DNA from: Gemmatimonadota bacterium
GTDB lineage: Bacteria > Gemmatimonadota > Gemmatimonadetes > Palauibacterales > KS3-K002
Direction of reading: 5' to 3'
Length of the DNA stretch: 64,000 nucleotides
Assembly: GCA_039586795.1 (NCBI GenBank)
Contig: JBDHJS010000002.1
Location: forward strand, 1-64,000
A program made the translations under genes and the position numbers. Shown piece after piece: positions 9,915 to 27,948 of the stretch. The number at the start of each line of letters is the position of its first letter. The stretch's first letter is position 1. A model generated the notes under the pieces. It searched no databases, was not told the origin of the DNA, and saw only the letters and a program-made list of their open reading frames with translations.

Positions 9915-11195
9915 TCACTTCACCTTACGCACCTTACGGCGCAGGAAGTCCATCATGATGTACTGACCCAGCGTAACGGTCGAAGTGAAGTACGCCTTCC
10001 CGCGGCACAGCGCCGTCACCTTCTTGACGAAGTCGACCAGCGCGTAGTCCTGAGCCAGCATGAAGGTATTGATCTGGATGCCCGCGCGACGGCAGAGGCT
10101 GACCTCACTGAACGTCTCCTTGAGGATTCGACGGTCCAGGCCCATGGGGTTCTTGTAGATCTGGCCGGGCGCTACCGTGATCGCCGACGGCTTGCCGTCG
10201 GTGATCATGATGATCTGCCGCATATCCTTCTTCTGCGCCATCAGGAGGCGACGGGCCAGCCGGAATCCCTCCGCCGTGTTCGTGTGATACGGCCCGACCT
10301 GCGCGCGAGCCAGCTCACCCAACGGGATCTCCTCCGCGCTATCGTGGAACAGCACCACCCGCAGAGTGTCGCCGGCGTACTGAGTGCGTATCAGATGCGC
10401 GAGGGCGAGGGCGACCTTCTTCGCCGGTGTGAAACGATCCTCGCCGTAGAGAATCATCGAGTGGGAGCAATCGAGCATCAGCACGGTCGCGCAGGACGAG
10501 CGGTACTCCGACTGGTGCACGTGCAGGTCATCGTAGTCGAGGTTGATCGGCACGCCCAACCCTTCCCGCTCGATCGCCTTCTTCAGCGTCGCCGGCACAT
10601 CGAGGTTTAGCGTGTCGCCGAACTCGTACTTCTTCGATGCCGCTTCCGCTTCCACGCCCGTCGACAGCTGCGTCGTTTCGTGCGCCCCGAAGCTTGATTT
10701 GCCGATCGAACCGAGCAGGTCCTTCAGCGTCTTGTAGCCGAGGAAGTCGAGACTCTTTTGCGTCAGGTTGAACTTGATCGAACGAGAAGCACCCTGCCCC
10801 AAGCTGCCCGGACCGGTGACCGGCTGCCCTTCCGACGGCATTTGAGGCGCCTGATCAGTCGTCAAGTAACCTTCCTCGATGAGCTTCTGGACGATGTCAT
10901 CTAACAGCTCGGCCAGCTGGCGAGCGCCTTCTTCGTCAGGTTCTTCCGCCAACGCCTGAAGCATCTCCGGCGTCACCTCGCCCATCTCGAGCAGCTTCTG
11001 GAGAATCGCCTCCTTCAACGACTCGAGGCTGTCCTGCCCTTCATCGTTCCCGAACTCACCCCAATACGGATGGTAGTACGGGCCACCGGCGAATCCGCTT
11101 TGCAGGAGGAAATCGGCAAGCTGGTCGAGCAGCCCCTGGAGGTTGAGCGACTCCAGGAGATGGCCGCTGTATTTCGTATAGTTCGTAAATCTCAT
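9915..11195 (-). CDS. VWA domain-containing protein (partner type of MoxR/chelatase-like AAA ATPases)
   Basis: MIDAS motif DCSHSM, TNT, ITDGKP. Confidence 0.88.
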
Positions 11196-13570: not shown

Positions 13571-14809
13571 ATGTCTAGATGGTCCAAGTCCGCTCGCCTT
13601 CCGTTCGTCGGAGTGATCGCGTGGATCGCGTTGGGGTGTACGGAGGCGCCGGAGGAAGCGGCTTGGCTGGTTCGCGACAGTGCTGACGTTCGGGTCGTTG
13701 AGAACCTGAGGCCGGCCTGGGAGGCGGGCCAGGCCTGGCGGGTCTTCGAGACGCCGGCCCTGGAGATCGGGGTCGAGGAGGGCGAAGAGCCGTACATGTT
13801 GTTCCGCGCCATGGATGCTCTGCGTCTTCCAGACGGCCGCATCGTCGTCAGCAACGCCGGGTCGGGCGAGCTGCGGTTTTTTGACCACGAAGGGGTCTTC
13901 CTATACAGCGCGGGTCGCCACGGGCAAGGGCCGGGGGAGTTCGGAGAGTTTTCCAGCATGAGATTATGGTCGGCGCCGCGGGACATTCTGGTGGTGACCG
14001 ACGGCGGCAACAACCGGGTGAACTTCTTCCGCACAACTGGGGAGCACGTTGGGTCCGCCCGCGTCGAGGCCGTCCCCGGTCGCAACCCTCCGTCTGTGAT
14101 CAGTGGCTTCGGCGACGGCACCTGGCTCGCCGTCGGCGGCAGTGGCCCCCTCACGGGCGCGACCGGTCAGATCATCCAGGGCGCTCGCGAGTATTTCCAC
14201 TACAACGCCAACGGAAGCCCTGCAGACAACTTGTTCGAGCTTCAACAAGCCCAGCGGTATGTCCATACGCTGGGAGACGTGACCCACTACCCATATATCC
14301 CTTTGACGGCTCAACCGTCCGTCGCGGCAGGAGTCTTGTGGATCTACGTGGGCAACGGTCATTCGAGCCGTATGGAGCGAAGACGCCTCGACGGAAACCT
14401 GAACTCCGTGATTCGATGGTCTGAGGGCGAACAGCGTCGAAGTCGGGACGTCTACGATCGATTCGTGGACGAGAGCCTGCAGTCGATTTCTTCTATGGAG
14501 CGACGGGAACTTTACCGGCACTACCTTGGGCTGGACCTGCCGCTCCCCGAGTTCATCCCGGCTTACCAAAACCTCATCGTCGATGACATCGGCAATGTCT
14601 GGGTGGAGGCCTACCGCCTGCCTTGGGAACGACAGCCAGTTTGGGAGGTGTTCGACCCCGACGGTCGCTGGCTGGGATCGATAGAAACGCCAACTTCGTT
14701 TCGACCATTGCAGATTGGCGGAGATTTTCTACTGGGGCGTCATCGGGATGAGTTGGGCGTCGAGCGGATTCGCCTCTACGAGTTAATCAAGCCACAGCCG
14801 GCAGGCTAG
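13571..14809 (+). CDS. Exported 6-bladed beta-propeller protein (probable lipoprotein)
   Basis: Lipobox ALGC; GRHGQGPGEF and VFDPDGRWLG repeats typical of this family. Confidence 0.7.
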   Translation: MSRWSKSARLPFVGVIAWIALGCTEAPEEAAWLVRDSADVRVVENLRPAWEAGQAWRVFETPALEIGVEEGEEPYMLFRAMDALRLPDGRIVVSNAGSGELRFFDHEGVFLYSAGRHGQGPGEFGEFSSMRLWSAPRDILVVTDGGNNRVNFFRTTGEHVGSARVEAVPGRNPPSVISGFGDGTWLAVGGSGPLTGATGQIIQGAREYFHYNANGSPADNLFELQQAQRYVHTLGDVTHYPYIPLTAQPSVAAGVLWIYVGNGHSSRMERRRLDGNLNSVIRWSEGEQRRSRDVYDRFVDESLQSISSMERRELYRHYLGLDLPLPEFIPAYQNLIVDDIGNVWVEAYRLPWERQPVWEVFDPDGRWLGSIETPTSFRPLQIGGDFLLGRHRDELGVERIRLYELIKPQPAG

Positions 14810-16746
14810 CCGATCTGCGACAACCGTTCCCGCAGTTCCTTCGCGCTTGCCAACCGCTCTTCCGGTTTCTTGGCCAGCAGTTCCAGGATGAGCGCCGACA
14901 ACGCGTCCGGAATGTCCGCGTTGATCTCCACCGGCGGCGACGGTTCGATGTTCAGCACCCTGCCAATCAGCGAGATCGTCGATTCGGCTTCGAAGGGCAG
15001 CTTCCCGGTCAGACACTCGTAGAGCAGGACACCGGCGGAATACAGGTCGCTGCTCGCCTCGGTGCTTTCTGAGAGCAGCTGCTCCGGCGACATGTAGGCC
15101 GGCGTCCCGACGATGAGCCCGGCCTCCGTGAGCGACGTCGTTCGCTCCGCCAGTCGCGCGACGCCGAAGTCCATCACCTTGAGCACACCGTCCGCGTCGA
15201 GCAACAAGTTCTGCGGTTTGATGTCGCGGTGGATAACGCCCTGCTCGTGGGCGACCTCCATGGATTCGGCGAGCTGGCTGCCAATGGCTAGAGTGGAGGA
15301 GACGCCGAGCTGCCCACGCGAATCGATCAACTCGCGGACCGTGATCCCCTCGACGTACTCCATCGTCAGGTAGTAAACGCCGGAACTCTCGCCGAAGTCG
15401 TGGGTGCGGACCACGTTCCGGTGCGAGATCTTGCGGGCCAACCGGATCTCCGTCTTGAAGCGATCGACCAGAGCCGCGTCGCTAACCATCTCCGGTCGCA
15501 GCGTCTTGATCGCGATCTCTTCATCCAGCTCCAGATCCCGGGCTCGATAGACCATCCCCATACCGCCGCCGCCGATCGCATCGATGACCTCGTATCGGTC
15601 GGCGAAGCGTTCGCCCGGCGACAGGCTCGCGAAATCCACCCCGGGCTCCTCTGCCGATCGCGACGCTCCACGTGCCGCCTCGATCTCGGACCGCAGGTCA
15701 CTCACCTGGTCCCGGAGTCGCCTCTCACGCGCCTCAACCTCCACGATCATTCCGTCGAATACCCGCGCTAGCTTGCCAAGCTCATCACCCCGGGCACTCA
15801 CATCGGCCAGCGAGCCCGGCTGGTACTTCCGAGCCTCCACAGCGCTCGCCGCTTCGGTAACGCGGCTTACCTGCCTCAGGTACTCGATCTCGTGGTCACG
15901 GAGCCGCTTCTTCTCCAGCGACGCATTGATCCGGGCTCGCAAGAGTACGGGATCGAACGGTTTCGGCAGGTAGTCTTCGGCACCCGCCTCAATACAACGC
16001 ACCACGCTCTCCATGTCGTCCAGCGCCGAGATCATGATCACCGGGATATCCCGGGTGGTCGGGTCATCTTTGAGTTGACCCAGGACTTCGTAGCCATCGA
16101 TCTCGGGCATCATGACATCGAGGAGCACCAGATCGAACGATCGTTCTCTTATCGTTCTAAGAGCGCTCTGCCCGTTCTCCGCGCACTCCACCACATGACC
16201 CTCGCGCTCGAGGCGCCGGCTCAACAGGTCACGGTTGGCTTCCACATCGTCCACGACCAGTACTCGGGCGGGCCCCGACTCGGAGTCGTCCCCGGTATCT
16301 TCGGTAACAGTCTTGTCAGCTTCCTCAGAACCGGCTTCCGCCCCACCGCCTTCGCCCGGCACCAGCTTCTCGGCCGCCGTGAGGATCCGCCTCAGGTCCC
16401 CGACCAGTTCTTCCTCGCTGGCCGCCGTGCTGGCCAACAGGGGCGCGACGGCGTTCACGATCTTCTTCTGCGGCTCACGCAGCTCCTCGTAGAGCTCCGA
16501 GAGCTCGCCGGAAGCGATCCGGGCGTCGGCGGAGCCTGTTGCCAGTCTCGCGTTGATCAGATTGAGGGCGCCGCGGGCCACGACCAGCGTTTCTTCGAGC
16601 GCTACGCGTCGGTCGGCGTGATCGCTATCCGGAATGTCTTCCAAGAGCATCTCGGCATACCCGACGATGTGATTGATCGGCGTACGCAAGTCGTGCCGCA
16701 GTTCTGCGATCTGTTCCGGTGTGAGCTTCGGTGAGTTCAAGGTCAC
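14806..16746 (-). CDS. Fusion of HisKA(DHp), receiver, HAMP-like linker and Hanks-type Ser/Thr protein kinase
   Basis: H-box RHDLRTPINHIVGY with no HATPase; REC VVDD..LLDVMMP..ISA..KPF; DELGKLARVFDGM; kinase GGGGMGMVY, AIK, HRDIKPQN, DFG, GTPAYMSPE. Confidence 0.92.
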   Translation of the reverse strand: MTLNSPKLTPEQIAELRHDLRTPINHIVGYAEMLLEDIPDSDHADRRVALEETLVVARGALNLINARLATGSADARIASGELSELYEELREPQKKIVNAVAPLLASTAASEEELVGDLRRILTAAEKLVPGEGGGAEAGSEEADKTVTEDTGDDSESGPARVLVVDDVEANRDLLSRRLEREGHVVECAENGQSALRTIRERSFDLVLLDVMMPEIDGYEVLGQLKDDPTTRDIPVIMISALDDMESVVRCIEAGAEDYLPKPFDPVLLRARINASLEKKRLRDHEIEYLRQVSRVTEAASAVEARKYQPGSLADVSARGDELGKLARVFDGMIVEVEARERRLRDQVSDLRSEIEAARGASRSAEEPGVDFASLSPGERFADRYEVIDAIGGGGMGMVYRARDLELDEEIAIKTLRPEMVSDAALVDRFKTEIRLARKISHRNVVRTHDFGESSGVYYLTMEYVEGITVRELIDSRGQLGVSSTLAIGSQLAESMEVAHEQGVIHRDIKPQNLLLDADGVLKVMDFGVARLAERTTSLTEAGLIVGTPAYMSPEQLLSESTEASSDLYSAGVLLYECLTGKLPFEAESTISLIGRVLNIEPSPPVEINADIPDALSALILELLAKKPEERLASAKELRERLSQIG

Positions 16747-17108
16747 TTACTCAGCAAGGTTTCCATCTTGGACAACAACCGATCCAGCTCGATCGGCTTC
16801 GTGTCGTAGTCATCGCAGCCCGCTTCGAGGGCCTTTTCGCGGTCACCCGCCATGGCATGAGCCGTGAGGGCTATGATCGGCACGCTCTCGGTCTCCGGCG
16901 CTGCCCGGAGCTGGCGCGTGGCCTCCCAACCATCGACTTCCGGAAGACTCATGTCCATCAGAATGAGGTCGTACTCACCCGTACGAGCCATCTCTATGCC
17001 CTCGCGCCCATCGACCGCCATCGCCACCTCATAGCCCTTCCGCACGAGCCGCCTCGAGAGCATATCCCGGTTCATCTCGTTGTCCTCGACCAGGAGAATC
17101 TTCGACAT
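16743..17108 (-). CDS. Single-domain response regulator (DivK/CheY-like)
   Basis: LVEDN, LMDMSLP, LTAHA and TKP receiver motifs; 121 aa. Confidence 0.95.
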   Translation of the reverse strand: MSKILLVEDNEMNRDMLSRRLVRKGYEVAMAVDGREGIEMARTGEYDLILMDMSLPEVDGWEATRQLRAAPETESVPIIALTAHAMAGDREKALEAGCDDYDTKPIELDRLLSKMETLLSK

Positions 17109-17133
17109 TGATCCAACAGCCTCCTTCGGGTTC

Positions 17134-19278
17134 TTAGTCGCCGGCGGGCTGTGCGCTGAGTTTCACGACGGCCGGTAGCCGGATCGCAAAGTTAGACCCC
17201 ACACCCACATCGCTCTGTACCTGAACATCACCGCCCATCATGTGACAGAACCGGCGCGTGATGGCCAATCCCAAGCCCGTCCCTCCGTACTTGCTCGTCG
17301 TCGCCGCCTCGGCTTGCGAGAAGGCTTCGAACACTCTGTTCATCTGGGCCGGCGTCATGCCGATACCGGTATCGGTCACATTGAACACGATCATCAGGCG
17401 CCCATCGTCCGCATCCTTGCGACGATCGACGTCCAGCGAGATCGTCCCGCCCTCGGTGAACTTCGACGCGTTCGACAGCAAGTTGAGCAACATCTGACGC
17501 ACTTTCGTCATGTCGGCGTACATGCTACCCAGGCCCTCGAAGCATTTCACTTCGAGTTGGTTATCATTCTTCGCTACCAACGGCGTGACCGTCGTTACCA
17601 CGTCATCGACCATCGCCCGGACATCGAAGCTCTCGAGGTGGAGTTCCATCTTCCCGGCCTCGATCTTCGACAGATCCAGAATGTCATTGATAAGCGACAG
17701 CAAGTGTCGACCCGCGGTGTTGATCTTCTCGAGATCGGTCGTGAACTCCCCGTGCCCCAGGTCAGTGACCTCTTCTTGCAGCATCTCACTGTAGCCGATG
17801 ATCGCGTTCAACGGCGTCCGCAGCTCGTGACTCATGCTGGCAAGGAACTGGCTCTTCGCGCTGTTGGCAGCCTCCGCCTCCCGGCGCGCTTGTAGCAGCT
17901 CCGTGATGTCGTGGTACAGCGCCAGAATACCTACCTGCTGCTTTTCGACAATGACCGGGACGCCGAGGATCTCGACGTCGACCAGAGTACCGTCTTTGCG
18001 ACGCCGGCGGCCTATCCCGTGAATCGGCCTGTCCAGTGCCTCCTTCGTATAGGCCACCGCCTCCGAGAGCGTCGCCTCCGTGGCGATCAGGTGGTCCAAC
18101 TTCTGTCCCACCACCTCGTCCTCCGTGTATCCGAACAGCTGTTCGAAGCCCGGATTGCAGGACACGATGTTCTCGGTGAGATCCAGCGTGACGATGGCGA
18201 CCGGGCTGTTGAGCACCAGTGCCTCGAAATACTGCCGCTGCCTCTGGGCCTCGGTGTAGAGGCCGGCGTTCTCAACCGCGATGGCGGCCTGCGGCGCGAA
18301 CATGTTCAGCAGGCGCAGGTCCTCGGGGCCGAACACCCGCTCCGGGTCGGAGTGGACCGTGGCGATGGCGCCCACCAGCCGTCGACCGATCAACAGCGGG
18401 GCCGCCATCACCGAGTGCACGAGGACGTCCGCGTACTGCACGGACTGCCCCAGCCATTCATGGTACGACGGGATGATCAGTGGCTCCCGCGTCTCCGCCA
18501 CCGCGCCCATCGCCCCCTCGCCCAACTTCAAGCGCGTGCCCGTCGAGTCCTTCCCGATGTTCTGACTGGCCACCACGACGAGCTCACGCGCGCCCTCCTC
18601 GTAGATCGCCACTTCACCGCCGGTTACTCCCAAGAGCGTCACCGCTCGCTCCAGCACGGCCTGCAGCACCTTGGAGAGCTCGAGCTCCGACGACAGGTCC
18701 GACATCGTGTCGAGCAACGCCTTGTGCTCATCGGCTCGCTGTCGCTCCTCGGCCAAAAGACGCGCACGTCCGATGGCGATGCTGGCCTGGTTCGCCGCCG
18801 CCGTTAGGATCTCGAAGTCGTCATCGCTGAACGCGTTCGGCTCGCTGCTCTCCACGACCAACACGCCGATCGTCGTCCCGTCGACGCGCAAAGGCACGTC
18901 GACCTCGGAGCCGCTGGCCAGGCTGGGCAAGTACTGCGACTCGCGCGTGACGTCCGCCGTGTAGTGGAGTTTCCCGTCCTGTAGCGCCCGCTCGCTCAGC
19001 CCCTCTCCGCGATGTACCCGCCAGTTGTCAGGAATGTCGGGCCAACCGATGCTGGCCTGCAGCACACGGTCGCCCGTATCCGGATCCAGCAGGAAGACGC
19101 CCAGGAAGTTGTACCCCAGTGCTTCGTCGTGGAGACCGGCCACGACCGACTGGTAGACTTCCGCCTCGTCGCTGGCGGAAGCGATCGCCGTGCTGAGCCG
19201 CAACAAAGCGGCCTGCCGGCGCGCCAGCCGGCGCTGGCGCGTGGGTCGGGCCGAGGTGGAGTTCCGCTGCGCTGTCAT
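17134..19278 (-). CDS. Soluble sensor histidine kinase: GAF-GAF-PAS-HisKA-HATPase
   Basis: [28 protein letters not shown]; two GAF and one PAS domain; no TM segment. Confidence 0.93.
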
Positions 19279-22200
19279 TGCGTCACCTGTTCCTCGGCGC
19301 CGCCAGCGTGAACCGCGACCAGGTCACGCACCACGGCGAGGAACTCGTCTCGGCCGCGGCCGCCCTTGCCGACGATTCGTTCGACTCCGCCGTTCAAGCG
19401 CCGTCGATCTTCGTCGGTCAGTTCCTTCGCCGTGAGCACCACGATCGGAATCGTCGACGTCTCTTCACGGGTGCGAACGGCTTCCAAGAACTCGAAACCA
19501 TCCATCTCCGGCATCATCAAGTCGAGAAGTACCAGGGCGGGTCGCTCTTCGGACAGCCGCTCCAGGGCCACGCGCCCGTTCTCCGCCTCCGCAACCGCCC
19601 AGCCCTCCTTCTCGAGCGTGCGCCTGATTAGCGTGCGCGTACTGTCGTCATCCTCGACGACCAGCACGGGCGCCGATGAATGATCGCTCCGGTATTTCCT
19701 CAGTATCGTCTTGAGCAGCTCGCGGTCTATCGGCTTCGTCATGTACTCCGACGCCCCCAACGCGAACCCCATGTTCTTTTCGTCGGCGATCGTGATCATT
19801 ACGACCGGGATCTTCGCCAGCGCCTTGTCCTCTTTGAGGGCGGTGAGCACAGCCCAGCCGTCCATCCCGGGCATCATTACATCAAGCGTGATCACGTCCG
19901 GCCGCAGCTTGCGGGCGGCCTTAAGACCGTCGGCGCCACTCGCCGCCACTTCGACGCTGTACCCTTCCTTGCCCAGCATGCGCATCATGATATTGCGCAC
20001 TGCCGGATCATCATCGATCACGAGCACCGTGCCCAGCGCCGCTCCCGGTTGCACCGTTTCCGGCTGCGATTCCACCTCACCGTGAGCTTGATCGATCAAC
20101 GACGGCGCCGTCGCCGGCAAGCGGACCGTGAACGTGCTCCCTTTGCCGGGCTCGCTCTCCACGGTCACGCCACCACCCATCATCTCACTGAACCGCTTGC
20201 TGATCGCCAGGCCGAGCCCCGTGCCGCCGTACTTGCTGGCCGTCGACACTTCGGCTTGCGCGAAGGCTTGGAACAAACGATCCAGCTGTTCGGGAGTCAT
20301 GCCGATACCGGTGTCCGAAACCAGGAAGACGAGGCTCTCGCCACTCCCGCCGTGGTTGTCACGCCTTGCCTCCAGCGTGATCGTACCGTTCTCGGTGAAC
20401 TTGCTGGCGTTGGACAGAAGATTCAGCAGCACCTGGCGAACTCGGGTCACGTCGGACTGCATCGTGCCCAGTTCACCCACCAGCTTCAGCTCGAGACGGT
20501 TAGAGTTCTTATCGATTAGCGGTCGAACTGTTGTCGCCACGCCTTCCACAGCATCGCGAACATCAAACGTCTCCAGGTACAGTTCCATCTTGCCAGCCTC
20601 GATCTTGGACAGATCGAGGATGTCATTGATGAGCGACAGAAGGTGCTTACCCGCCGAGTGAATCTTCTTCAGATCTGGTAAGAACTGGCCCTGACCTTCT
20701 TCCTGAGCGTCTTCTGCGAGCATCTCGCTGTATCCGATGATCGCGTTGAGCGGCGTGCGAAGCTCGTGGCTCATGTTGGCCAGAAACTGACTCTTCGATT
20801 CGTTGGCCGCTTCCGCATCGCGACGCGCCTTCAGTAGCTCCGTGATGTCGTGGTAGAGCGCCATGGCGCCCACGCGTTCGCCGCCCACCATCACCGGAAT
20901 CGTGAAGATCTCCACATTGATGAGCTGGCCGTCCCTACGCCGCCGAATGCCCGTGCCGGCCGTCGCTCGGCCGCTCATCGCCTCGTCGGTGTAACCGCGC
21001 GCCTCCGCGAACGTCTCGTCCGTTGTGACCAGCGTGTCGATGTTCTGTCCCAGCACTTCGTCTTCCGAGTAGCCAAACATCTTCTCGAACGCCGGGTTGC
21101 ACGATGTGATATTCATATCGAGGTCGACGTTCACGATCGCCACTGGATTGTTTAGGACAAGGTCCTCGAAGTAGCTCTGCGCCGCCGAGAACAGCGTCGC
21201 GTTCTCGATCGCGATGGCGGCCTGCGGCGCGAACAACTGCAGCAAGCGCAGATCCTCCGACCCGAATTCCCGCGACGGGTCGGAATGGACCGCCGCTATG
21301 GCGCCCACCAGACGGTTGCCGATCAACAGAGGCGCGACCATCACCGTCTGCACGGTGTCCTGGGCATAGTTTGCGGACCGACCGAGCCACTCCTGGTATC
21401 GCGGGATGATCAACGGCTCTCGGGTTTCGGCTACCTTGCCCATCGCGCCCTCACCCAACGCCATGCGCTGACCTACCGCGTCCGTGCCCATGTTGTGGCT
21501 CGCCGCGATCAGAAGCTCTCTGCGTGAATCATCCCAGGTCGCCAGCTCGCCGCCGGTCACGTTGAGTAACGAAACGGCTCGCTCCAACACGCCGTGCAGG
21601 ACGTTCGACAACTCCAACTCGCCGGACAGGTCCTTCATCGTGTCCAGCAGGGCTTGCTGCTCTTCGGCTCGTCGCCGCTCCGCATCGAACAGCCGCGCGT
21701 TCTCGATGGCGATCGCCGCCTGGGGCGCGAACATCGTCAGCCGCCTCAGGTCCGCCTCGCCGAACTTCCGCTCGGGATCGGAGTGAACACTGGCGATAGC
21801 GCCCACCAGACGGTTGCCGATCAACAGCGGCGCCGACATCACCGCCTGAACACTGCTCTGCGTGTACTTATCCGACCGGCCCTCCCACTCCTGGTAGCGC
21901 GGGATGATCAGCGGCCCCCGCGTCTGCGCCACGTGGCCCATCGCCCCTTCGCCCAGAGACATTCGAACGCCGACGGCGTTGGACGGCATATTGTGGCTGG
22001 CCGAGATCTCCAGCTGCTCCCGGTCGGCGTCATAGATCGCCAACTCGCCGCCAGTCACGCCCAGCAAACTGACCGCACGTTCCAACACCGCCTGCAGCAA
22101 CTTCGTTAGCTCCAGCTCGCCGGACAGGTCACCCAGCGTATCGAGAAGCGCTTGCTGCTCGGAGGCACGCTCGTGCTCGGCGCTGAATAGGCGCGCGTTC

Positions 22201-23087
22201 TCGATCGCAATCGCGGCCTGGGCAGCGAAGAGGTTGAGCAGCCGCAGATCGGCCTCTCCGAACTCGCGCCCTGGATCAGAGTGCACGCTGGCAATCGCCC
22301 CGACGAGGCGCGAACCGATGAGCAGCGGCGTGACCATGACCGCCTGTACAGAGGTCTGCGTGTACTTGTCCGACCGGCCTTCCCACTCCTGGTAGTTCGG
22401 GATGATCAACGGCTCGTGGGTCACGGCGACGTGGCCCATCCCGCCTTCGCCCACAGCCATCCGGGCCCCGACAGCGTTCGTCTCCATGTTGTGGCTGGCG
22501 ACGATGACCAGTTCCTCCGCTGCCTCGTCGAAGACGGCCAGCTCACCACCCGTGACGCTCAGCAGCTCGACGGCGCGTTCCAGCACCACCTGAAGCAAGC
22601 GATCGAGTTCCAACTCCCCTGACAGGTCGGCTAGCGTCGCCAGCAGGGCTCGCTGCTCGGCGGTTCGCAGCCGTTCCGCCTGCAGCAGCCGGGCGCGGCC
22701 GATACCGATGCTGGCCTGGTTGGCCGCGGCGGTCAGAATCTCGACGTCGCCTTTGTCGAAGGCCCGCTTCCGATCTCGCTGCACCACGAGCTCACCGATG
22801 GCGCTTTGGCCGGCCTTCAATGGGATCTTCAGCTCGGACACGTCCGCACCGCCTTCGCCGAACTCGCCGGCGCTCGCCTTGAGCGACGGCTCGAAGCTCG
22901 AGGTGCCCGCCAGAAACAGTCCGACCGCATCGAAGCCGAACATCTCATGACGCAGACCCTCCACCACGCTTCGACAGACCTCGTCCTCGCTCTGCGCTTC
23001 CGCGATCCGCGTGCTCAGATTGAGCAGCGCCGAGCGCATGTGAGCGACTGAGGCCTCGCTTGATGCTTTCCGTGCCGGTTCCTGCAT
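19275..23087 (-). CDS. Hybrid sensor histidine kinase: GAF(short)-GAF-GAF-GAF-PAS-HisKA-HATPase-REC-REC
   Basis: Three 166-aa GAF repeats, HK boxes, two receivers ([15 protein letters not shown]). Confidence 0.93.
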
Positions 23088-23102
23088 GGGTTCTCTGTTT
23101 CT

Positions 23103-25730
23103 CTAGGTGGGCACGGCCGTTGGCAACCGCACTGTGAACGTGGAGCCCACGCCGGCTTCGCTTTCCAGCGTCACATCTCCGCCCATCATCTGGCAGAAGC
23201 TGCGCGAGATCGCCAAGCCGAGCCCCGTGCCTCCATACCGCTTCGATGTAGACGTCTCGGCCTGAGAGAACGGCTCGAATAGCTTCGCCGCCTGCTCCGG
23301 CGTCATACCTATCCCGGTATCGCTAACGCTGAACACGATCTCGTCCTCACCGTTACCAAGCGTCTCGCGCTGCACCGCTAGGGTGACCGTCCCTTTTTCC
23401 GTGAACTTCGCCGCGTTCGACAGAAGGTTCAGCAGCACCTGCCGCGTCCGCGTCAGATCGGAATGCATGGTCCCTAGATCCACGTCACAGCGCAGCACGA
23501 AGTCGTTCTCGTTCTTCTCGACCAGCGGCCGAACCGTCGTCGCCACCTCCTCGATCGTGGCTCCGACGTCGAACGTCTCTGGCGTCAACTCCATCTTCCC
23601 GGCCTCGATCTTCGAGAGGTCCAGGATGTCGTTGATCAGAGTCAACAGGTGAGATCCAGCGGAGTGGATCTTCTGAAGATCGAGAACGAAGTCGTCTTTG
23701 CCGTCCGCCGACGCGTCTTCCTGCAACATCTCGCTGTAGCCGAGAATCGCGTTGAGCGGCGTGCGAAGCTCGTGGCTCATACTGGCCAGGAACTGGCTCT
23801 TGGCGCTGTTGGCCGCCTCGGCATCGCGCCGGGCCTCCAGCAGCTCCGTGATGTCATGGTACAGCGCCATCAGGCCCAAGCGCTCTCCGTCCACCACCAC
23901 CGGAACGCCGAGCACCTCCACATCGACCGTGCTCCCATCCTTCCGGCGACGCTGGCTGATCACTTTCACCGGACTGCTCTTCAGCGCCTGCTCGGTATAC
24001 GCGACGGCCTCCAAGCGCGTCTCCTCGGTCGTGATCAGGTCGTCCAGATTCCGGCCCACGACTTCGTCCTGCCTGTAGCCGTACATCGTCTCGAATGCGG
24101 GGTTGCACGACACCGCGTTGTGAGCCGAATCCAGCGTCACGATGGCCACGGGACTGTTCTGCACCAGCTCCTCGAAGTACTGCTTCTGCTGGCGAGCAGC
24201 CGTGTACAGCCTCGCGTTCTCGATGGCGATCGCCGCCTGCGGCGCGAAGAGCTGGAGCAGGCGTAGCTCCTCCGATCCCAGCTCCCGGGACGGGTCCGAG
24301 TGCACCGCCGCGATCACGCCCACCAGGCGGTTGCCGATCATCAACGGCGCCGCCATGACTGTCTGGACAGTGTCCTGAGTGTATTTCGCCGAGCGTCCTA
24401 GCCACTCCTGATAGCGCGGGATGATCAGCGGCTCCCGCTTCTCCGCCACGTGGCCCATCGCGCCCTCGCCCAGCGCCATCCGCTGGCCTACCGCGTCGGT
24501 CCCCATGTTGTGGCTCGCCGAGATCAGCAGTTCTTTGCTCGAGACGTCCCACGTCGCCAGCTCGCCGCCCGTCACGTCGAGCAGCGACACGGCTCGCTCC
24601 AGCACGCCATGCAAGACCTTCGACAGCTCCAGCTCGCCCGACAGGTCCTTCATCGTGTCCAGCAGAGCTTCCTGCTCCTCGGCGCGTCGCCGTTCGGCAT
24701 CGAATAGCCGCGCTTTCTCGATAGCGACCGCCGCCTGGGGCGCGAACATCGTCAGACGCCGCAGGTCAGAATCGCCGAACTCCCGGTCCGGGTCTTTGTC
24801 CATGACCGCTATGGCGCCCACCAACTGCCCGCCCATCAATAGCGGGGCAACCATCACGCCGTGGAACTCGACCTGCTCGTACTGCTCCGACTGACCCGAC
24901 CATTCCTGGTATCTCGAGATGATCAGCGGCTCCCGGGTGAGAGCGACGTGGCCCATCGCTCCTTCGCCAACCCCCATCCGGATACCCGTCGTGTCTCTCT
25001 TTCCGACGTTTTGGCTGGCGACGATCACTAGCTCCTCCCGCTCGCGCTCGTAGATTGCCAGCTCGCCGTGGCTCACCCGCAGCAGTGCAACCGCTCGGTC
25101 GAGTACGGCCTGCAGCAACGTCGACAGCTCGATCTTCTCCGATAGGTCCGCCAGCGTGGCGAGCAGCGCCTCGTGCTCATCCGCCCGCTGGCGCTCAGCA
25201 GCCAGCAGGCGGGCACGTCCAATGGCGATCCCCGACTGGTTGGCTGCTGCCCTCAGGATCTCGAAGTCGTCCGGCCCGAACGCGTGAGGCTGGTTGCTCT
25301 CGACCACCAGCACGCCGACCAGCTCGTTGTTGATCTGGATCGGGACATCGACCTCCGAACCCTCGTTGCGGGTTGGCAGGTAGCGTGTGTCCTGAGTCAC
25401 TTCGGCGGTGTAGTGGAGTCGTCCGTCCAGCAGCGGCCGCTCGCTCAAACCCCGGCCCGGCTGCACCCGGAGGCCCTCCGGAGCGTCGGCCAAGCCCACG
25501 CTGGCCACGACCACACGGTCACCCGTCGCCTCGTCCACCAGAAGCAGCGCCACGAAGTCGTAGCCCAGCGCCTCGTCGTAGAGCCCGTTCACGACCGCAC
25601 CGCAGATCTCGCTCTCGGTCTCCGCGCTGCCGATGGCCGTGCTCAAGCGCAACAACGCCGCCTGGCGGCGCAGCAGTCCAGTCTTCCTCTTCGTCATCTC
25701 CGGGCGAGACGGCGTTTGCGGCCCAGCCAT
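23103..25730 (-). CDS. Soluble sensor histidine kinase: GAF-GAF-GAF-PAS-HisKA-HATPase
   Basis: HK boxes, three GAF domains, PAS; paralogous to the two downstream kinases. Confidence 0.93.
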
Positions 25731-25950
25731 CGAGTCGCAGCTATGCTGAAGTTTCGGCTACATGCTGGTGCGGGGGGTCCAGCGTCAGTCGCAGCGCGAT
25801 ACGCGGGGAGCCGCGCCAGGGACGTAGGCAAGATGAGCGCACGAGGCCACCTCCCTTTGGCAAAGATAGTCGGGTAGCCTGAGAATATGGCCAGAGCGGG
25901 TGGAAGGGGCAACTTTTAACCAGGTTTGCGAAATAGTGCGGCCGGGTCGA

Positions 25951-26049
25951 GGTAGACGGTCGACAGTCGACGGTCGACGGTAAGCAAGCTAGGTCGTATT
26001 CCTCGGCCTCTACCGTCCACTGTCTACCGTCTACTGTCTACTGCTTACC
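25951..26049. repeat. Inverted arrays of heptamer repeats (consensus RGTMGAC) forming an imperfect hairpin
   Basis: GGTAGAC GGTCGAC AGTCGAC GGTCGAC GGTAAGC ... CTCTACC GTCCACT GTCTACC GTCTACT GTCTACT GCTTACC. Confidence 0.8.
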
Positions 26050-26101
26050 CTGCAAGCAGTGTCATGTTGTTGTCGGACAACAAGTTATAACACGCGCACT
26101 C

Positions 26102-26491
26102 TCAGCGCCGCAGACTCCGACCCAATGCGGCGCCGAACAGCACCAGCAGCGGGGCCGTCCAGAAACCTGGATAGTAGCCCCACTCGATGACCGTGATCAT
26201 GATGTGGCTGGTGCCGTTCAGGATCTCCAGGATCGCCCAGACTTTGGCTAGCCGCAGGGCCCAGCGTCGGCCGGCGGAGACAGAGGGCGTAGCCGCAGCT
26301 AACAGAATCAGAATGGCGATGTGGAAGAGGACGAAGAACTCCGGCGGCACTGACGAGAGGGGCGACAGCTCCTGGTAGCCAGATACGTAGTCCTCGAAGG
26401 TGTGTATGAAACGGGCAAAGATGAGGCCCGGATACAGGTGCCTTCCCGCCGACAGGTGGTGATGGTGGACCGTTATGTCTCGTGTGGCCAA
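26102..26491 (-). CDS. HXXEE-domain-like small membrane protein (possibly degenerate)
   Basis: HTFED in place of HxxEE, NGTSH and [11 protein letters not shown] family motifs; atypical N-terminus. Confidence 0.55.
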
Positions 26492-27948
26492 TTCGAGTCT
26501 CCCAGCCCGCTACTGCCATGCGAGGGACGAGGGCGATCCCGGCGCCGCGAGTAGCTCCCGGCGTCGTTGCGGCTGATCCGCCGCTTGGCGACCAGACCCT
26601 CGAGCACGACTTCGCTGGCGACGACGAGGCTGGCCCGCTCGGCGATGCCCGGCTCGGCGGGAACGGCTGTCCTGGCCAGCTCCACCAGCCCCGGCACAGT
26701 CTCGAAGCCCTTGAGACAAGCCTCGGCGCTCGATAGCTCGGCGACCTGCAGCGCTCCGCCGTTGTCGAAGTAATCGACGATCGGCCCCGCGTCCTCCTCG
26801 ACGAAGTACTCGTCGAACGTCGCGCCGGCGGCCCTCGAGATCAAGTCGCGGGCGATCTTCTCCCCACCCTCGAGCTCACCCTCGTACTCCAGCTCCAGCT
26901 TGCCGGTGATAGACGGGAGCGAGGCGTAGACGTCGGAAACCCAGGGCACGACCAGCGTCTCCTGGTTGGCCAGCGATCGGCGCTCGGCGTTGGAGATGAC
27001 ACTCTCCATCACGGTGATCGGGAGGCGCTGGGAGACGCCTGAACGACGGTCGATCCGCTGGTCCTCACGCGCCTCAAAGGCGACGCGCTCGACGATCTCC
27101 TTGATCATGCGCGGGACCTGGATGGGCCGCTCGCCACGGTCGATCCACGCCTCCTGCTCGGTAATCTGGACACCGTATTCGAGATCCTGAGGATAGTGGG
27201 TCATGATCTCGGCGCCGATGCGGTCCTTTAGCGGTGTGATGATCTTGCCCCGGGCCGTGTAGTCTTCCGGGTTGGCGGTGAACACGAGGACGGCATCAAG
27301 CGAGAGACGAATCGGGTAGCCCTTAATCTGGACGTCGCCCTCCTGCATGATGTTGAACAGCCCCACCTGGATCTTGCCCGCCAGATCGGGCAACTCGTTG
27401 ACGGCGAAGATCCCGCGGTTCGCCCGGGGTAGAAGACCGTAGTGAATGGTGAGCTCGTCGGACAGCACGTGTCCACCTCGCGCCGCACGGATCGGATCGA
27501 CGTCACCGATGATGTCCGCGATCGTCACGTCCGGGGTCGCCAGCTTCTCGACGTAGCGTTGATCACGGGGCACCCAATCGATGGGCGTATCTTCACCGTG
27601 CTCCTCGACCAGCAGTCTGCCGTACTTGCTGATCGGATGGAACGGGTCGTCGTTGACCTCCGAGCCGGCGATGATCGGGACCCGCTCGTCCAGCAAGGTG
27701 ACGAGATCGCGCAGGATGCGGCTCTTCGCCTGGCCGCGCAGCCCGAGGAGAATGAAGTTATGACGGGCCAGAACCGCGTTCACCAACTGGGGAACCACCG
27801 TGTCCTCGTACCCGAGGATACCTGGGAAGAGCGGTTCCTGCGCCTCGAGCTTGCGAATCAAGTTCGCCCGCATCTCGTCCTTCACGGAACGCGGGCAGTG
27901 GCCGGACTTCTTTAGTTCTCCGAGCGTCTTTGGAAGCGGCTGGGGCAT
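26473..27948 (-). CDS. Magnesium-chelatase-like / MoxR-type AAA+ ATPase
   Basis: Walker A variant GLRGQAKS, Walker B variant [27 protein letters not shown]. Confidence 0.88.

Follow-up and report, generated by a model that had tools for sequence, protein, structure and literature searches.

DivK and PleD of the alphaproteobacteria are encoded in one operon and are both direct targets of kinases, and DivK has in addition a downstream role of its own (PMC7003649). In Pseudomonas aeruginosa, three hybrid sensors converge by way of HptB on a receiver, that of HsbR; this protein is a Ser kinase/phosphatase, and phosphorylation represses its kinase activity (PMC5085249). His carriers that derive from DHp domains and lack kinase activity stand between two receivers in the Spo0F-Spo0B-Spo0A and CckA-ChpT-CtrA relays (PMC9981736, PMC3433190). 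Here we describe a locus that shares features with each of these systems. It lies on the minus strand of a 64,000-nt stretch of Gemmatimonadota DNA (the window; positions 1 to 64,000 of contig JBDHJS010000002.1, assembly GCA_039586795.1), where five genes encode three soluble histidine kinases (HK1, HK2 and HK3), a stand-alone receiver (the small receiver) and a protein, hereafter the fusion, that joins a tandem His-bearing helical bundle, a receiver, a HAMP domain and a Hanks-type Ser/Thr kinase. Judged from sequence, it is likely that through this gene set a protein kinase is switched by a bacterial His-Asp signal. We place at roughly 0.55 the probability that the cassette is a His-Asp network of branched form, with a Hanks kinase gated by a receiver as its main enzymatic output.

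Such a cassette would join the two main phosphorylation systems of bacteria directly at the molecular level. Gemmatimonadota genomes carry dozens of Hanks kinases without known input (besides that of the fusion, this genome has 48 full kinase domains, and it has 5 matches to FHA). As all of its parts are soluble, the whole path could be rebuilt in vitro.

Comparison with described systems

The DivJ/PleC-DivK-PleD systems of Caulobacter and Agrobacterium resemble this locus in having a single-domain receiver gene right before a receiver-enzyme gene, together with several paralogous kinases. Here, however, a Hanks kinase behind a HAMP domain stands in place of the REC-REC-GGDEF architecture, an extra His bundle is present, the soluble kinases are encoded in the same cluster, and the small receiver is 36% identical to DivK. 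The kinase of HsbR is of the GHKL type rather than the Hanks type. With the HptB-HsbR-HsbA system the locus has in common the passage from hybrid sensors through a His carrier to a receiver controlling a Ser kinase/phosphatase; in that system, by contrast, HptB is a separate Hpt protein, HsbR includes a phosphatase, the sensors are scattered and the kinase is repressed by phosphorylation (PMC5085249). The kinase at our locus is PknB-like, its DHp-derived bundle is tethered and no STAS substrate gene accompanies it. Pfam listed none of the partner-switch parts of the HptB-HsbR system (Hpt, SpoIIE with an RsbW-like kinase, STAS) in the five genes, and partner-switch-like genes were recognized by eye only in three sister cassettes (L091, L093 and L112).

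The logic of hybrid sensors converging on a receiver-controlled Ser kinase is thus not new, as HptB-HsbR illustrates. A first-pass annotation of the window had known of no characterised example with this layout, and this stands insofar as no study of it was found in the open-access literature; HptB-HsbR is nevertheless a precedent with another type of kinase. Within the same literature, which for the most part leaves out subscription papers and supplements, neither a Hanks kinase behind a receiver and HAMP domain nor a single-chain His bundle was found, and the available parts of PMC1183210 and PMC2176072 do not describe the fusion or the cassette.

ChpT forms a dimer that looks like an entire histidine kinase (PMC3433190). 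The bundle of the fusion differs in consisting of two hairpins in one chain, in lacking an ATPase-like domain and in being joined to the final receiver. Spo0B is likewise dimeric and resembles a whole histidine kinase. In several relay intermediates a FATGUY motif has been described (PMC9981736); the small receiver has LTAH instead.

Organization of the five-gene locus

The genes, all on the minus strand, encode in order HK1 (23103..25730; a soluble GAFx3-PAS histidine kinase of 875 aa without a receiver), HK2 (19275..23087; a GAFx4-PAS hybrid histidine kinase of 1270 aa with two C-terminal receivers), HK3 (17134..19278; a GAFx2-PAS histidine kinase of 714 aa without a receiver), the DivK-like small receiver (16743..17108; 121 aa, phosphoacceptor Asp52) and the fusion (14806..16746; 646 aa). 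The kinases were assigned by Pfam and local domain mapping, the small receiver by Pfam, its orthologues and a tree, and the fusion by Pfam, alignment and a structural model. Coordinates and junction sequences bear out the tight packing reported in the first-pass annotation: neighboring genes overlap by 4 bp at 19275-19278 and at 16743-16746, and the two remaining pairs are separated by 15 and 25 bp. The 3′ end of the set abuts a convergent gene at 13571-14809 (+), and the next same-strand open reading frame (ORF) lies 372 bp from its 5′ end.

Pfam, local mapping and hydropathy likewise agree with the earlier assignment of three soluble GAF/PAS histidine kinases and a stand-alone receiver; hybrid architecture is found in one of the three kinases, HK2. 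Among the five proteins the highest 19-residue hydropathy values range from 0.7 to 2.0, and because the two top peaks (1.89 and 1.97) fall on GAF core strands, no membrane anchor is evident. Pfam lists no DNA-binding, GGDEF/EAL, cyclase or SpoIIE family for the five proteins, in line with the annotation.

Each of HK1-3 has the H-box His and a HATPase_c domain with N, G1 and G2 boxes, as expected of HisKA-type kinases, and both receiver Asp residues are kept in HK2. Across related loci, which hold one to four kinases each, all 89 kinase cores examined keep the His, Asn and Gly boxes. Cores of the HK2 class (21 cores, support 0.997) and of the HK3 class (26 cores, support 0.97) occur in one copy per locus, which indicates that the paralogues are old and retained. 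Hybrid receivers are not required, since six loci with at least 10 kb of upstream sequence have orthodox kinases only and no hybrid, and since the HK2 receiver pair is missing elsewhere in 5/5 hybrid-less genomes tested (best match 32%). The GAF domains fall into two types, both conserved, and the consensus of their 134 and 70 matches shows no conserved Cys of the kind that would hold a bilin chromophore.

Architecture of the fusion protein

Pfam resolves the fusion as HisKA (12-65)-REC (162-273)-HAMP (291-337)-Pkinase (385-635). On the minus strand, these features correspond to a bundle of tandem DHp-like hairpins (16369..16719; residues 10-126), predicted to form a single-chain four-helix bundle, whose hairpin 1 includes the His18 codon (16693-16695); a receiver (15928..16263; Pfam and alignment) bearing Asp210; a HAMP domain between receiver and kinase with long helices on either side (15736..15876; Pfam E 0.003); and a PknB-like RD kinase domain (14842..15594; Pfam, alignment and fold comparison). 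The receiver and kinase of the DHp-REC-kinase fusion proposed in the first-pass annotation are therefore as described; the HAMP domain had been missed, and the "DHp" is a tandem hairpin of four helices.

The kinase domain has the features of Hanks-type kinases (PF00069, E 2.6e-53; Gly loop, β3 Lys, αC Glu, HRDxKxxN, DFG and an APE-like motif), and by Foldseek its fold has TM-scores of 0.8-0.9 to PknB/Stk1 domains. It falls outside the PknB/Stk1 equivalog NF033483 (325.9 bits against a cut-off of 450, over the kinase part only) and no PASTA domain is present; the fusion is equally distinct from the REC-REC-GGDEF family NF007135 of PleD (134.9 bits against 474), having no GGDEF domain. It shares the RD kinase fold with PknB/Stk1 and with dCache_3-HAMP receptor kinases, and unlike them has neither a membrane anchor nor PASTA; in place of the extracellular sensor it carries a receiver module.

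HATPase_c is absent by Pfam from the fusion and from its top 120 homologues, so that these proteins do not qualify as histidine kinases. The homologues are 60-100% identical to the fusion, and those with a named taxon are Gemmatimonadota; all have the receiver and kinase, and HisKA is found in 119, the exception being a partial sequence. The architecture of HisKA, receiver and kinase without HATPase_c, for which the annotation had proposed a search, is kept by Pfam set in 119/120 of the best homologues.

AlphaFold predicts four N-terminal helices, a disordered linker, the receiver, long helices running through the HAMP domain (266-304 and 322-360 flank it) and the PknB-like kinase. HAMP scores above or near the Pfam cut-off in several homologues, and three other families share the joint conservation of kinase, HAMP and receiver, at 53-66%.

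Conservation of the cassette within Gemmatimonadota

The full-length fusion occurs in 42/300 other genomes of the phylum (one matched from residue 156 yet has the bundle), and its N-terminal module in 7/18 genomes of the same family. The gene neighborhoods of 40 of these 42 loci were analyzed. In all 40, the small receiver (65-86% identical) lies directly upstream of the fusion, 21-70 bp before the bundle match, and in 38 at least one histidine kinase core is encoded on the same strand, the exceptions being a contig end and locus L070; the genomes compared are kin, and these counts are hence not independent. The small receiver is also present at 9/9 further loci, and 40 control genomes without a full-length fusion gave three matches, namely a cassette truncated where its contig ends and two relatives at 54%. 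The gene arrangement is not a product of chance, as receiver and fusion stand in the same order in 40/40 loci, and the co-conservation on which the first-pass annotation had made its reading depend is supported.

Within the aligned fusions, His18, Asp210, Lys414, Glu433, the HRD (506-508), Asn513, the DFG (526-528), Thr540 and Thr548 are invariant (40/40). One assembly has a fusion gene that seems frameshifted inside the HAMP domain (L079:7375-9268). In another locus (L070:3995-12795) the small receiver is itself fused to the bundle-receiver-HAMP-kinase protein, beside a divergent gene for a 2041-aa kinase-STAND-GAF-HK-REC-REC protein.

Apart from antisense shadow ORFs, no other neighbor is conserved in more than 4/41 loci, and no substrate gene was found to travel with the cassette in these 41. 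A downstream substrate kinase was considered as a conserved partner and rejected: kinase genes cluster in 15/41 loci but scatter on the tree, with a single clade of 4.

Docking surfaces and receiver kinship

Receiver specificity is set by positions that include those numbered here as N+4, R+10 and R+11 on helix 1. This helix-1 surface is present in 40/40 small receivers and 34/40 fusion receivers and in none of the hybrid receivers (0/49 and 0/45), and among the 35 readable of the 43 receivers in the same genome it occurs only in the small and fusion receivers. The bundle and the three kinases, in turn, have in common the H-box H-x-L-R-T-P-x-N-x-I-x-G-Y, the N-x-I-x-G-Y part of which is found in 0/10 other readable H-boxes of the genome (28 sites). 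With a common docking helix and matching H-boxes that set it apart from the rest of the genome, the cassette appears to be insulated from the cell and fully connected inside.

A midpoint-rooted receiver tree with FastTree supports places the small receiver and DivK as sister groups (support 0.996), at 36% identity over a background of 29%; here the label DivK denotes the position before pleD, with pleD confirmed in 4/18 loci. This link was not selected for by the search. The best single-domain match of the small receiver in the PDB is also DivK (1m5t, E 6e-25), and the best PDB match of the N-terminal half of the fusion is PleD. The locus therefore has the arrangement that distinguishes DivK-PleD, a DivK-sister single-domain receiver upstream of a receiver-enzyme gene.

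A predicted complex of the bundle with the small receiver scored 0.37, against 0.03 for the best control, with contacts agreeing at 90% or more and a partner predicted local distance difference test value of 86. The mark applied was reached by 116/157 solved and 2/215 mismatched pairs, and scores of 0.60 or less included 18 solved pairs and both of the mismatches. DHp and receiver are a classic pairing, for which a prediction may succeed through resemblance, and the support lent to this contact is weak.

A predicted single-chain His bundle

AlphaFold places the bundle helices at residues 10-37, 44-67, 79-106 and 112-126, and a model of the isolated domain again has four helices (predicted TM-score, pTM, 0.73). 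The bundle carries a single His, His18 in hairpin 1; hairpin 2 has none, and no ATPase domain follows. Several relatives show a further HisKA stretch at hairpin 2, and in a Sinorhizobium meliloti twin described below the His is found in hairpin 2 and is lacking from hairpin 1. The bundle thus has, as Spo0B and ChpT do, a conserved His (40/40) on a predicted DHp-like four-helix bundle. The homodimer and degenerate ATPase-like domain of those proteins are not found in it, the bundle being a single chain fused to a receiver. From the models, we infer that it is a DHp pseudo-dimer in one chain with one active face, and as a relay element it would be a His carrier of a new type.

An exchangeable output across phyla

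Related cassettes, which carry cyclase, SpoIIE, GGDEF or histidine kinase outputs, occur in Betaproteobacteria, Gammaproteobacteria and Alphaproteobacteria, and also in Rokubacteria, Acidobacteria, Verrucomicrobia, the Armatimonadetes group, Cyanobacteria, Rhodothermales and Myxococcota/deltaproteobacteria. The counts from other phyla come from a small sample, as 1/64 parts of the genome collection was covered. Both receivers are present at 25 loci; 17 of them lie outside Gemmatimonadota, and an H-box is present between the receivers in 11 of these and absent from 6. A census of outputs was taken over 66 representative proteins matching the whole module (73 of 150 matches were scanned): a Hanks kinase follows in 6, a histidine kinase ATPase in 14, SpoIIE in 3, HD, TIR and PAS domains in 1 each, and no enzyme in 40. 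Cyclase, SpoIIE, GGDEF, histidine kinase or HD domains thus occupy the same position behind the receiver helix elsewhere. This is the pattern expected of an output slot, and in this cross-phylum cassette the kinase is one of several outputs that can be exchanged. The locus also suggests that DivK and PleD, as a gene pair, are members of a wider family whose outputs are interchangeable. The expectation in the first-pass annotation that similar modules end in cyclases or phosphatases is borne out by the SpoIIE (PP2C) outputs and by a cyclase in S. meliloti.

The S. meliloti cassette lies on pSymB (NC_003078.1 near 368 kb; CP140937.1, U8C39_13990/13985) and has the same order of HK-REC-REC, 121-aa receiver and tandem hairpin-REC protein, with identities of 74% in the H-box region, 67% in the small receiver and 62% in the receiver of the output protein. 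It differs in having a membrane HAMP-PAS sensor, an adenylate/guanylate cyclase output, no HAMP domain in the output protein by Pfam, and its His in hairpin 2. In S. meliloti 1021 this twin would offer a genetic model. There, a Tll0287-like gene overlaps that of its sensor kinase (L072:2812-8308).

The commonest form of the module (P0128, P0131, P0136 and about 35 more) is a bundle-receiver-HAMP protein with a conserved 35-residue amphipathic tail that matches no Pfam family and is likely a protein-binding output. In one protein the module is fused to a TIR domain (P0221), and in two a receiver-receiver-HAMP arrangement is fused to a ParA/MinD-like ATPase (P0124, P0153). Three bundle-less cassettes (L091:4053-6900, L093:5158-6912 and L112:5283-6980) have genes that by eye are RsbW-like, STAS-like and patatin-like, flanked by the gene of the DivK-like receiver and one for a receiver-SpoIIE protein.

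The kinase domain of the fusion groups with Gemmatimonadota membrane dCache_3-HAMP-kinases (support 0.79), apart from the 48 other kinases of the genome, a grouping that is partly expected because this family was chosen by similarity to the query. These receptor Ser/Thr kinases, the nearest relatives of the fusion kinase, are widespread in the phylum (L153-L162; for example, L153:3035-5068, minus strand), and none was found in the same genome at E 1e-80. Because the nearest family sits behind a HAMP domain in membrane receptors, the fusion kinase was probably HAMP-coupled already. A deltaproteobacterial DHp-REC-kinase protein (L110) carries an unrelated kinase, which suggests a separate fusion. 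We put forward tentatively, as somewhat short of an even chance, that the ATPase-less pseudo-dimer is an undescribed class of histidine phosphotransferase serving as a tethered plug-in across many phyla, its Gemmatimonadota form being a Hanks kinase that receiver phosphorylation switches directly via the HAMP domain and that arose when a DivK/PleD-like phosphorelay module took the place of the membrane sensor of a receptor kinase.

Proposed mechanism and alternatives

Gene order, domains, intact active sites and co-occurrence are observed directly, and on this footing we propose how a signal might travel. The GAF/PAS kinases would autophosphorylate in response to cytoplasmic ligands and would then phosphorylate both the small receiver and the fusion receiver, as DivJ and PleC do with DivK and PleD; both receivers should be reachable by the kinases because the same docking helix is found on both. 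The bundle, an ATPase-less DHp whose H-box copies that of the kinases, could not autophosphorylate and might serve as a His shuttle that works in both directions, linking the small receiver with the tethered Asp210. The state of Asp210 would be passed through helix 5 to a HAMP dimer and on to the kinase pair, altering trans-autophosphorylation of the activation loop (Thr540/Thr548), which could turn the kinase on or off. The two receivers of the hybrid kinase would be dispensable modulators. The kinase, taken in the annotation as the only output, may not be the only one, as the small receiver is sister to DivK, which has its own downstream role in alphaproteobacteria.

Several observations weigh against this reading. 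The fusion receiver is 46% like PleD against a background of 33% and yet forms no clade with it, and the likeness is circular in that the PleD loci were found with a profile containing the fusion receiver. The two hairpins make a weak repeat (32% identity over 41 residues, E 0.005). A fold search with the bundle, using a model from a single sequence, returned only generic helical bundles, the best being a pectin methylesterase inhibitor (Z 12.0, root-mean-square deviation 2.7, 114 aligned residues), and none of the matches listed was a DHp, Hpt, Spo0B or ChpT entry; Foldseek gave no match at E 0.001, and the ESM Atlas gave only HisKA-labelled or unnamed small clusters. The HAMP match of the fusion is below the Pfam cut-off, and the pTM of the full-length model (0.50) does not fix the packing of the domains. 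The absence of a bundle from 6/17 cassettes outside Gemmatimonadota indicates that its role is not universal, and the 40/66 modules without an enzyme suggest that receiver-HAMP proteins may act mainly through partner binding.

Control of the kinase by its receiver is common to the branched network and to two of the alternatives. The better of these, which we consider unlikely, is a strictly linear relay of the Spo0F-Spo0B-Spo0A type, in which phosphate would pass from the kinase His to Asp52, His18 and Asp210 with no direct route. Such a relay is consistent with the invariant companionship of His18 and the small receiver, with the existence of receiver-bundle fusions (L070 and P0148), with the weakly supported complex of the two and with the dispensability of the hybrid receivers seen in the six orthodox-only loci and the 5/5 genomes without the receiver pair elsewhere. 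The six bundle-less cassettes, however, keep the same kinase and the small and output receivers without an H-box between the receivers, the docking surfaces offer no bar to kinases reaching Asp210 directly, and the DivK/PleD precedent is branched. Because of the common docking surface, the matching H-boxes, the kinship with DivK and these bundle-less cassettes, the branched network fits better than the linear relay.

Alternatively, the bundle might be a tethered drain, or phosphatase, in which His18 and Thr22 strip phosphate from an Asp210 that the kinases reach directly, the small receiver then serving as a sink, regulating the kinases allosterically or, like DivK, providing a second output. 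The sequence D/E-x-x-T is a phosphatase signature of HisKA domains, and Thr is found at H+4 in 40/40 bundles; the optional presence of the bundle across phyla and the DivK kinship of the small receiver would also suit a drain. The His is kept, however, in 59/59 aligned positions among 62 diverse modules, a motif-anchored and partly circular count, and such conservation exceeds the usual need of a pure phosphatase. We regard this explanation as quite improbable.

Least probable of all is a kinase that is not gated by the receiver and is tethered to phosphorylate cassette proteins, as feedback or a second input, with receiver-HAMP signaling by partner binding, as might be argued from the 40/66 enzyme-less modules (37 tails, mostly with one conserved amphipathic motif), from the lack of a travelling substrate gene and from the STK-STAND-HK (Ser/Thr kinase-STAND-histidine kinase) sensor of L070; against it, the kinase replaces the tail where other proteins carry SpoIIE or histidine kinase domains, and it is co-conserved with HAMP and receiver across three other families.

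Transcription and flanking sequences

Six RNA sequencing runs, inspected for co-transcription, contain 5-17% of the words of the cassette, and four of them gave scattered contigs of depth 2-5 that fall inside and outside the cassette. The libraries may contain DNA. Gene junctions are spanned by two pieces, and no single transcript was recovered. A promoter and terminator scan of the cassette was at chance level (1 against 1.8 expected and 6 against 5.4, respectively). Upstream of the cassette, at 25941-26050, inverted arrays of a 7-bp unit could form a long hairpin. The genome has 52 such arrays of at least three units, often as facing pairs, against 0 in three shuffles, as for a dispersed element resembling repetitive extragenic palindromes. 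Beside the cassette, a 491-aa ORF (26473-27948, minus strand) has a P-loop-like motif and no Pfam match, and a VWA protein is encoded on the other side (9915-11195, minus strand); genes for ATPases and VWA proteins are often partners.

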